NCBI GenBank assembly: GCA_039621445.1 | Contig: CP154954.1 | Span: forward strand, 5,193,955 to 5,229,233 | Reading direction: 5' to 3' | DNA: 35,279 nucleotides | Source: Euglena gracilis | Taxonomy: Eukaryota | Shown: one piece after another, positions 1,512-33,934 of the stretch | How the letters are laid out: the number at the start of each line of letters is the position of its first letter | How positions within the stretch are numbered: the stretch's first letter is position 1 | Position numbers and translations under genes: made by a program | The notes under the pieces: generated by a model | Seen by the model: only the letters and a program-made list of their open reading frames with translations | Databases searched by the model: none | What the model was told of the DNA's origin: nothing

Positions 1512-4500
1512 GCCGGGGCCGCCTTTCACGAAGATATGGGCTCTCCACCGTCGTTGTTGGGCTGGAGTGGAGTGCTGTGTCGTGGCGTGTCGTGTTGCGT
1601 TGCATCATATCGTGCAGTGTCGTGTCGACGCGGAGTGGTGTTTCGTGTCGTGGTGCCGTGTCCCGTCACGTCGTTTCGTGTTGTGTCGTGCCGTGTTGTG
1701 TCATGTCGTGTAGTGTAATGTCGGGCGTTGTGTCGCAGTGTGTTGTGGTGTGGTGTGGTGTGGTGTGGTGTGTCGTGCTGTGCCTTCATCAGGTTGAGAA
1801 TTATGAGTGTCTTTCTTCCCATGCTAGCCACAAAGAGAAAGGCTACCCCCTGGAGGCAAAGGCAAAGGCAAGGGCGACTTCGGCAGTCGTGGGGAGTACC
1901 GCAGCCGACCGGAATACGACAGCCAGGGGTGACAGCTGCCAATGGATACCCCCGCCCCACCTCTCTTTTGGGCAGCCTCCTTGGTCCATTTGGGCACCAC
2001 ATGTCCATTTTCCGCCAATTTCCCCCGTGTTTTTAAAGTTGAATTTGCTGGGACAGCAGAGTTCATTTATTTTTTATTGGCTCAACGACTGACTGACGAT
2101 ACCCAATGACACGCACGCACGCACGGACTCACGCACGCACGCACGCACACACTCACGCACACACGCACGCACGCACGCACGGACGGACGCACGCACGCAC
2201 GGACGCACGCACGCACGCACGGACGCACGGACGCACGCACGCACGCACGGACGCACGCACGCACGGACGCACGCACGCACGCACGCACGCACGGACGCAC
2301 GGACGCACACACACAAAGTGGCCCCATCACCCTCCCCCGCCTCTGCCGCCAGCCCAGAGCGCCGGGACTACGGCGGAAAAGGTGGCCGCGACGAGTATGG
2401 GAAAGGGGATCGCCGTGACTATGAACAGGGGTGCCCCCCCCTTGAGCGGCCCTGGACGAGGTTGACGAAGCAGGTGGGGGCTCGCTGTCCTGTGGGGAGA
2501 TGGGGGCAGAGGACAAAGACGCCGGGTGTATTTTCGACCCATTTTGGGACCCATATGGGACGTCCCCCCAAAATCCTCCAAAACCCCATTTTTTTCACAC
2601 CTTCCAAAATTTCAACATTTTCTCAAAATTTTGATTTGCGAGGTTTTTGAACCAAAAAATGCCATTGACAATCCAAAAGAAATCCAAAATAAAAAATGTG
2701 AATAAAATTTGATTGTGCCGAAATTTTGGTTCAATTCTTTTGAGCTTCGTTTTTTTCACCCCCGCCTAAAACTACCAATTTTCAACACTGAAATTTTTTC
2801 GGATTTTTTTTTGTGAAAAAATGTGGGTTTTCCATCAAAAAATTATGCATTTGGTTTAATTTTTCAAAAATTTTCCCCGGCCAACGTCCCCGTTTTCCCA
2901 AAATTGGTGAAAATGCTGTGGTGGGTGGGGGGAGGTCGACCCACCCCCCCTCCAACTTCCCGGGTGGGGGGGTCGACCACCCCCCCGCTAGGCCTTCCCG
3001 TTCTGCCCTGGTGGGGGATGGGGGGCTCGACCTCCCCCCCCCCCCACCCCTTCCCGTCTTTCCAGGGTGCTGATTTTTCGGTCAATTTTTCCTTGGTGCC
3101 TTCGGCGCCGAAGGAATTTTTCTTTAAGTGGTGCCATGGTGGGCAGGGGGTGTCCACCCACCACCACCACACCGGGCATATCCGTACAGCCCCGCATCCC
3201 CAGGGGTTTTAATACCTAACAGGGAGGAGGCAGGGAGGGTGTGAGGGTGTCCCCATCTGTCTCTGCATTGCACCCGGGGGAGGCCGACACCCACTCACCC
3301 TGAGTTGGGGAGGGGAATCAATATTATTATTTTTAATTATTTCCTTATCTAATTTTTTTTTGTGTCCAGACAATCAACACTTGACCCTCTGAAACCTACA
3401 AACTTTTCCCCGCCGGGCACCTGGTGTGCCGGGTTCACACCTACACCCCCCTCCGCCCCCCTTCGGCGGCAACAGACCTCTAACGGCCAATCTGGGGTTG
3501 GGGGCACGGATGTGCTCTTCACACATTCTGTATTCCAACCTTGGCGTTGCGAGACTGCATTGCTGAAAGGGCAGGGATGCTTATTGCCAAAGCGTTGACG
3601 ACTGCGCGCATCCGGTGCGCAGATGACCTGCCCCCCCCCCCATCCTCGGCTCTGCGTGGGCACCTCCTGGCGGCGGTGGCAAAGGTGAGCGCCCAGAATA
3701 CTCCCGGCGTGCACAGGCCGCACCGTACCAAATTATGTCCCTCAATTTGTTGACCCGCGGCCCATTTTGTCCCACACCTTAGAATTATTCACAAGCAGAA
3801 TACAATCCTTTCTGTGAGAGGTTTTCCCACCACTTCATTGTTGCACATGTTTTCTGTTGAAGGTTTGCAATTTTGACAACATTTCATATTTTCCAGAATT
3901 TCGAATTGAAAACGGTGTTCCACATGTGCATGTATGTGTATGTGTATGTGTATGTGTATGTGTATGTGTATGTGTATGTGTATGTGTATGTGTATGTGTA
4001 TGTGTATGTGTATGTGTATGTGTATGTGTATGTGCATGTGTATGTGTATGTGTATGTGTATGTGTATGTGTATGTGTATGTGTATGTGTATGTGTATGTG
4101 TATGTGTATGTGTATGTGTATGCGTATGTGCATGTGTATGTGCATGTGCATGTGCATGTGCATGTGCATGTGCATGTGCATGTGCATGTGCATGTGCATG
4201 TGCATGTGCATGTGCATGTGCATGTGCATGTGCATGTGCATGTGTATGTGTATGTGTATGTGTATGTGTATGTGTATGTGTATGTGTATGTGTATGTGTA
4301 TGTGTATGTGTATGTGTATGTGTATGTGTATGTGTATGTGTATGTGTATGTGTATGTGTATGTGTATGTGTATGTGTATGTGCATGTGCATGTGCATGTG
4401 CATGTGCATGTGCATGTGCATGTGCATGTGCATGTGTATGTGTATGTGTATGTGTATGTGTATGTGTATGTGTATGTGTATGTGTATGTGTATGTATGTG

Positions 4501-33934: not shown

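Follow-up and report, generated by a model that had tools for sequence, protein, structure and literature searches.

How the nonconventional introns of euglenids originated, and why their borders lie three nucleotides beyond a paired CAG/CTG motif on one side and five on the other, is the question raised by a 35,279-nucleotide stretch of Euglena gracilis DNA (GenBank assembly GCA_039621445.1, contig CP154954.1, positions 5,193,955 to 5,229,233 of the forward strand; hereafter the window, to which all coordinates refer). The DNA is nuclear and carries most of a DBC1/LAIKA-domain gene interrupted by 30 introns, 10 GT-AG and 20 nonconventional. [quoted passage not shown] Our analysis indicates that they are very probably ordinary euglenid nonconventional introns, spaced by a 3/5 ruler belonging to the present-day splicing machinery. 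If a single duplication of 8 target bp did account for 3+5, transposon footprints would make up about 70% of the introns of Euglena, and a dedicated system would excise them.

All intron borders were taken from the alignment of the window with P0001 (eukprot EG_transcript_763), a transcript-derived E. gracilis protein that comprises 1195 aa and carries DBC1 and LAIKA domains. The CAG/CTG motif alone yields thousands of candidate introns with ambiguous reading frames. P0001 was mapped by tblastn and a junction-by-junction search, and the model was then verified by splicing; each border is defined only to within the short direct repeats at its junction. The spliced product is 3084 nt long, encodes 1027 aa followed by a single terminal stop and is 99% identical to the transcript-derived protein: 1019 of 1031 aligned columns are identical to P0001 residues 165-1195, the differences being 8 substitutions and one 4-residue indel within a repeat. 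Our intron numbers exceed those of the initial annotation by one, because an additional intron (403-1421) precedes the range that it covered.

Most non-GT-AG introns had been described as NNN-CAG...CTG-NNNNN, and the alignment agrees: 16 of the 20 show this 3+5 geometry with a motif of the C-D-G/C-H-G type (14 CAG/CTG, one CGG/CCG, one CAA/TTG), and in the remaining four the spacing is 3+4 for intron 6, 3+6 for intron 16, 3+7 for intron 14 and 2+2 for intron 2 (where the 3+5 register offers a GGGG:CCCC helix only). Pairing stops precisely at the C:G pair; one position further out, it occurs in 35% of introns versus about 32% of controls. Inwards, stem positions 4 to 7 are paired at frequencies of 0.95, 0.80, 0.85 and 0.70, compared to 0.77, 0.50, 0.42 and 0.45 for pairs of arms drawn from different introns. 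Both arms read CAGG followed by G or C (base 4 is G in 17/20, base 5 in 13 and 12/20), and CAGG alone is common to the introns: positions 5-16 vary from one to another, the stem beyond the motif being specific to each intron and complementary within it. A bulge-helix-bulge-like outer helix between the exon ends was also considered and rejected, its pairing not rising above controls. Cleavage sites are of the pyrimidine|purine (Y|R) class, with Y as last exon base in 20/20, R as first intron base in 19/20, Y as last intron base in 15/20 and R as first base of the next exon in 20/20.

This feature is already known as the Euglena noncanonical splicing code, 5'-N3CDG-/-CH'GN5-6|R, for which Nomura 2025 used both a set of 649,158 E. 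agilis introns and knock-ins made in E. gracilis (PMC12501133). The knock-ins demonstrated that spacing, motif, pairing and the downstream-exon purine are requirements of present-day splicing: point changes in CAG or CTG eliminate splicing, stem pairing is necessary, the 5' spacer is strictly 3 nt and the 3' spacer is functional at 5-6 nt and weakly at 4 or 7, whereas fully synthetic introns devoid of any target duplication are still spliced (PMC12501133). Measured against this code, 15/20 window introns combine 3+5 with a listed motif, one lies at 3+6, and one at 3+5 carries CAA/TTG, a motif absent from the list in the accessible part of PMC12501133; three (3+4, 3+7 and 2+2) fall outside it. 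The window introns share with euglenid nonconventional introns (Milanowski 2014, 2016; Nomura 2025) the non-GT-AG borders, the pairing of CAG at +4..+6 with CTG at -8..-6, an intron-specific stem, Y|R junctions, many slidable junctions and the presence of GT-AG introns in the same gene; nothing essential sets them apart, the differences being the spacing of 4/20 and the CAA/TTG motif of one. We favor a model in which the pre-mRNA would fold so that CAG (or CGG/CAA), 3 bases inside the 5' end, pairs with CTG (or CCG/TTG), 5 bases before the 3' end, in a helix lengthened by 4-9 further intron-specific base pairs. Starting at the helix end, an excision machinery, probably non-spliceosomal, would measure 3 nt outward on the 5' side and 5 nt on the 3' side, cut at the Y|R junctions, join the exons and free the intron. 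Nonconventional introns are reported to be excised as full-length circular RNA, after the conventional ones (cited in PMC11282704 and PMC12501133).

Since spacing and CAG/CTG are needed for splicing today (PMC12501133), their presence is uninformative on origin. The arithmetic deserves attention in its own right. For an element whose excision sites lie x nt ahead of its inverted repeat and y nt beyond it, the frame is restored only when insertion has produced an (x+y)-nt duplication, and x+y equals 8 in 16/20 introns; as removal is exact, an insertion can become such an intron only if it arrives with 8 duplicated bases. The initial proposal that removal of 3+5 nt restores the pre-insertion coding sequence is thus sound in its logic. 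We infer that 3+5=8 is a constraint on harmless insertion into exons, and that its link to an 8-bp target-site duplication is real and testable; the link could arise by a machinery evolving around a transposon, or by survival in exons of only those insertions that fit. A MITE-like origin had been mentioned in general terms, and this is indeed in print: Milanowski 2014 proposed MITE-like insertion as an intron source (PMC3935182), a 2024 review terms CAG/CTG a terminal inverted repeat (TIR) and the junction repeats TSD-like (PMC11282704), and the idea is repeated in PMC6221363. A literature search excluding subscription journals and supplements returned neither the equation of 3+5 with one 8-bp duplication nor a hAT assignment, and the word hAT has no occurrence in the accessible text of PMC3935182, PMC11282704 or PMC11782384 (the last on plastid introns only).

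The initial annotation had suggested comparing 8-mer identity with controls and with other registers; we carried out this comparison within the window. The 8 nt preceding CAG were compared with the 8 nt following CTG in the 20 introns, using 380 cross-intron pairs as controls. No overall excess of identity was detected among these introns: 54 of 160 positions matched, a mean of 2.70 versus 2.62 for controls (permutation P=0.42), and the 16 strict 3+5 introns alone gave 2.94 versus 2.59 matches of 8. When duplication lengths from 3 to 13 nt were scanned, the 8-nt register was not special (0.338 versus 0.328), and the sole nominal signal, at a length of 11 nt, had P=0.025 before any correction for the 11 tests. 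With a mean difference of 0.08 and a standard error of about 0.28 (calculated by hand), intact duplications are thus limited to about 1 intron in 8. Stem quality and duplication identity were not correlated over the 20 introns (Spearman -0.18, P=0.46), intron 21 having the best stem (13 bp uninterrupted) yet matching at 1/8.

Four relic duplications had been listed by the initial annotation, and all are literally correct: 6/8 in introns 3 and 20, 5/8 in intron 10, and 7/7 in intron 6 with one base deleted (GCCGCGAC versus GC-GCGAC). Duplication traces in the window are at most faint and concern at most 3/20 introns. It is about an even bet that such matches are due to chance, aided by the Y|R bias, by a C-rich N5 spacer (about CCNCC) and by a repetitive coding sequence rich in GAC, GGC and CGC. 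Mean identity equals that of the controls, slidable introns amount to 75% against 71% expected from Y|R alone, introns 3 and 20 owe their matches to a shared pattern, in which exon xCGAC faces the common C-rich spacer CCGCC, and the TSD-like cases were selected after the data had been viewed. What chance accounts for less easily is that tail probabilities reach about 0.05 in three related tests, one of them being the search allowing one 1-nt gap (3/20 introns at 6 matches or more, P=0.048), and that the gapped 7/7 falls in the only 3+4 intron.

Several of these observations, together with published ones, weigh against a spacing dictated purely by the splicing machinery. Two of 20 introns (3 and 20) reach at least 6/8 versus 0.32 expected (P=0.057), as do 1.6% of control pairs. 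The gapped 7/7 of intron 6 is equalled by 0/380 control pairs, and no other intron has a 3' spacer that falls one base short of five. Junction microhomology averages 1.70 versus 1.25 nt (P=0.053), and the junctions can slide by 0-6 nt. All 20 introns follow an exon that ends in Y, though knock-ins revealed no base requirement on the donor side (PMC12501133), a hint that the signal stems from history or the target site and not from splicing. Finally, a newly gained E. agilis intron does carry 8-nt junction repeats: Milanowski 2016 described gapC intron 4 of strain ACOI 323 as strain-specific and newly gained, with eight-nucleotide direct repeats at its junctions (PMC4770533), and it is the sole recently gained, strain-specific nonconventional intron that our literature search found described. 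The donor-side Y is difficult to attribute to splicing needs alone, and so is a phase bias: 16/20 nonconventional introns are in phase 0 versus 3/10 GT-AG introns (P=0.0008 when the phases of the Y|R sites in the coding sequence are taken into account). The last exon base is T in 10/20 introns, versus 28% expected among Y|R sites of this coding sequence (P=0.03). Short direct repeats are present at the junctions of 84.4% of introns in the large survey (PMC12501133). We hold it possible, though clearly the lesser option, that these introns began as CAG...CTG-ended insertions duplicating 8 bp, the 3/5 cut of the machinery removing the element and one duplication. The junction repeats, the shared Y|R class and the 8-nt repeat of gapC would then be decayed or intact TSDs left by a source that could be hAT-like, Merlin-like or another 8-bp-duplicating element.

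The more specific version, in which the introns are hAT-type MITEs with CAG-starting TIRs and 8-bp TSDs, removed along with 3 nt of the left TSD copy and 5 nt of the right one and constituting an introner system, appears unlikely. hAT termini typically start with (C/T)AG, and the arms of the window introns begin with CAGG(G/C); a maize Ds element, a member of the hAT superfamily, is reportedly on record as having created an intron, which would speak for this version. The 3+5=8 sum of 16/20 introns, the three TSD-like cases and the gapC repeat fit as well, and hAT elements make 8-bp TSDs and possess TIRs of 10-25 bp (PMC3942097). However, the arms agree in CAGG only, so that the 20 introns do not share a TIR of that length, and the spacer sums of 4, 7, 9 and 10 in 4/20 introns depart from 8. 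Self-BLAST revealed neither full-length intron-to-intron similarity nor sequence families among the 20 introns, the only matches being palindromes and nested repeats of introns 4/16 and 13/17. Free elements were sought as CAG...CTG stem candidates outside the microsatellite, in about 30 kb of the window, and those with 8-bp flank repeats did not exceed offset controls: at least 6/8 flank identity was found in 0/35 strict and 2/329 looser candidates (one being intron 20), versus 0-5 in ten offset controls. A Pfam scan of 8 of the 25 open reading frames (at least 90 aa) overlapping the 4-kb intron 29 gave no match, to a transposase or otherwise, and the literature search retrieved no Euglena hAT element. 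Added to the flat 8-nt register and to stems whose quality is unlinked to TSD identity, as in intron 21, these results leave nothing in the window that supports the hAT superfamily specifically.

The introner part of the proposal fares no better. On this proposal the window introns would resemble introners of Amoebophrya (PMC7789003), and of Micromonas and Aureococcus (via PMC11282704), in consisting of a TIR-bearing element plus one target-duplication copy overlapping the borders, with a hairpin joining the ends. In Amoebophrya the intron equals the element plus one duplication, with direct repeats of 3-5 nt and inverted repeats of 8-20 nt (PMC7789003). Those introners nonetheless form multi-copy families with shared repeats and duplications of 3-5 nt (or 3 nt), whereas the window introns display no family, arms alike in CAGG only and no significant duplication. 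What stands of the initial interpretation is its logic, joined by the published 8-nt gapC case (PMC4770533); nothing tested in the window supports the hAT assignment or the introner system.

Alternatively, 8-bp-duplicating insertions could come from another superfamily or from several unrelated hairpin elements, of which only those fitting 3+5 survive in exons; we find this improbable too. Two Merlin families with 8-bp TSDs, near-perfect TIRs and 5'-GG termini are documented in E. gracilis (PMC8101967) and are the only 8-bp-duplicating transposons of this species that our literature search retrieved, and stems as varied as those of the window introns point to many sources or to selection on the stems. 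Yet no GG termini of the Merlin type are seen beside the CAG of the window introns, as their N3 spacers lack an NGG pattern, and the global 8-nt signal is missing here as well. That hairpin DNA of the required kind is present in the genome is shown by a perfect hairpin at 28209-28260, the core of a perfect 66-nt palindrome (28202-28267) that lies within GT-AG intron 28, in an (AT)n tract. It looks like a young hairpin element, ending in GG...CC, with CAGG...CCTG further in and flanks ATATATAT / ATATATAA (7/8 identity); the flank identity is uninformative because the flanks sit in the (AT)n tract. When CAG/CTG are taken as ends, the 8-nt flanks match at only 4/8.

A third possibility is that repair of double-strand breaks, or fill-in of staggered breaks, captured filler DNA, junction repeats being repair microhomology and not transposase footprints. 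The authors of the gapC study themselves attribute the repeats of intron 4 to double-strand-break repair (PMC4770533), and the short, graded microhomology of the window junctions and the lack of element families among the 20 introns are in line with it. We nevertheless give it little weight: it leaves unexplained why CAG...CTG inverted repeats should stand at a fixed distance from the break, and microhomology has no cause to measure exactly 8 nt. A scan of metagenomes for orthologous loci gave 57 pattern matches, none of which was confirmed.

The spacing of the window introns is that measured by the present-day ruler. The 8-bp interpretation refines a published hypothesis in a way that is coherent and cheap to test; support for it from the window is weak, and the literature supplies one case in its favor (PMC4770533). 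The resemblance to hAT MITEs is restricted to short terminal inverted repeats, CAG termini and a duplication length that would equal 3+5; TIRs common to copies, an excess of 8-bp TSDs, free copies and, in the eight reading frames scanned, a transposase were not found in the window. Merlin is alike in making 8-bp duplications, and in a documented presence in this species. Public data could decide the matter, with hundreds of thousands of annotated introns in E. agilis and E. gracilis. The contribution of the window is a well-resolved example, with 30 introns, of the known code, along with a quantitative null result that has a weak tail. The coordinates of the gene and its introns are gathered in Table 1.

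Table 1. Gene and introns of the window, with motif, 5'+3' spacing and matches between the 8 nt preceding and the 8 nt following the motif pair (nc, nonconventional; former numbers are those of the initial annotation).
Feature	Position	Strand	Remarks
Partial DBC1/LAIKA-domain gene, P0001 aa 165-1195	373..33934	+	31 exon pieces; start upstream of window; stop codon 33932-33934
nc intron 1	403..1421	+	CGG/CCG, 3+5; 3/8; precedes range of initial annotation
nc intron 2 (former 1)	1512..1854	+	atypical CGG/CTG, 2+2; 2/8
nc intron 3 (former 2)	1921..2350	+	CAG/CTG, 3+5; 6/8, ACGACAGC vs CCGCCAGC
nc intron 4	2423..3674	+	CAG/CTG, 3+5; 2/8; contains dispersed repeat 2691-2932
nc intron 5	3711..9305	+	CAG/CTG, 3+5; 3/8; contains 5.3-kb (TGTGTA)n-type microsatellite
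nc intron 6 (former 5)	9417..9690	+	CAG/CTG, 3+4; ungapped 2/8
nc intron 7	9817..10098	+	CAG/CTG, 3+5; 2/8
nc intron 8	10189..10765	+	CAG/CTG, 3+5; 3/8
nc intron 9	10889..11605	+	CAG/CTG, 3+5; 2/8
nc intron 10 (former 9)	11811..12100	+	CAG/CTG, 3+5; 5/8
nc intron 11	12169..12506	+	CAG/CTG, 3+5; 1/8
nc intron 12	12567..13237	+	variant CAA/TTG, 3+5; 4/8
nc intron 13	13413..14722	+	CAG/CTG, 3+5; 2/8; contains MITE-like element 14038-14245
nc intron 14	14842..15915	+	CAG/CTG, 3+7 (5+5 if slid), sum 10; 2/8
nc intron 15	16050..17842	+	CAG/CTG, 3+5; 2/8
nc intron 16	17957..19029	+	CAG/CTG, 3+6; 1/8
GT-AG intron 17	19144..19793	+	
GT-AG intron 18	19879..20512	+	
GT-AG intron 19	20562..21691	+	
nc intron 20 (former 19)	21763..22543	+	CAG/CTG, 3+5; 12-bp uninterrupted helix; 6/8, GCGACGGA vs CCGCCGGA
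nc intron 21	22625..23230	+	CAG/CTG, 3+5; 13-bp uninterrupted helix; 1/8
GT-AG intron 22	23430..24134	+	
GT-AG intron 23	24243..25557	+	
GT-AG intron 24	25648..26219	+	
GT-AG intron 25	26390..26723	+	
GT-AG intron 26	26841..27332	+	
GT-AG intron 27	27391..27936	+	
GT-AG intron 28	28015..29223	+	
nc intron 29	29289..33272	+	CAG/CTG, 3+5; 4/8; nested 3.2-kb element with inverted-repeat bounds
nc intron 30	33399..33880	+	CAG/CTG, 3+5; 1/8; contains (GGT)n/(GTT)n repeats

The two intron classes segregate along the gene, introns 1-16, 20, 21, 29 and 30 being nonconventional and the GT-AG introns occupying positions 17-19 and 22-28. Repeats RDYGGKG / GKGKGD, encoded by exons between 1422 and 11810, make up the N-terminal half of the protein, and the residues GRDR of P0001 are absent from the window allele.

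Some introns host repeats of their own. A dispersed repeat of about 250 bp is present at 2691-2932 and 18562-18812 (80.5% identity), nested within introns 4 and 16 without spanning either in full. Three introns carry copies of a MITE-like family whose inverted ends, GGGAAACTGTCA...TGACAGTTTCCC, adjoin C/G runs: 14038-14245 (intron 13), 19321-19473 (intron 17) and about 16515-16580 (intron 15). In intron 29, inverted repeats at 29902-29972 and 33062-33134 (81% identity) enclose the nested element of about 3.2 kb, in which palindromes based on a TGCGCAAATGCGCA-like motif abound. Most of intron 5 is occupied by the microsatellite of about 5.3 kb (3930-9260), made of TGTGTA, TGTGCA and TGTGTT units with a GC skew of up to 0.9. 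Intron 30 contains, at 33480-33830, long arrays of the trinucleotides (GTT)n, (GCT)n and (GGT)n, and interstitial telomere-like TTAGGG repeats, degenerating to TCAGGG/TTAGAG, lie at 23028-23075 inside intron 21.

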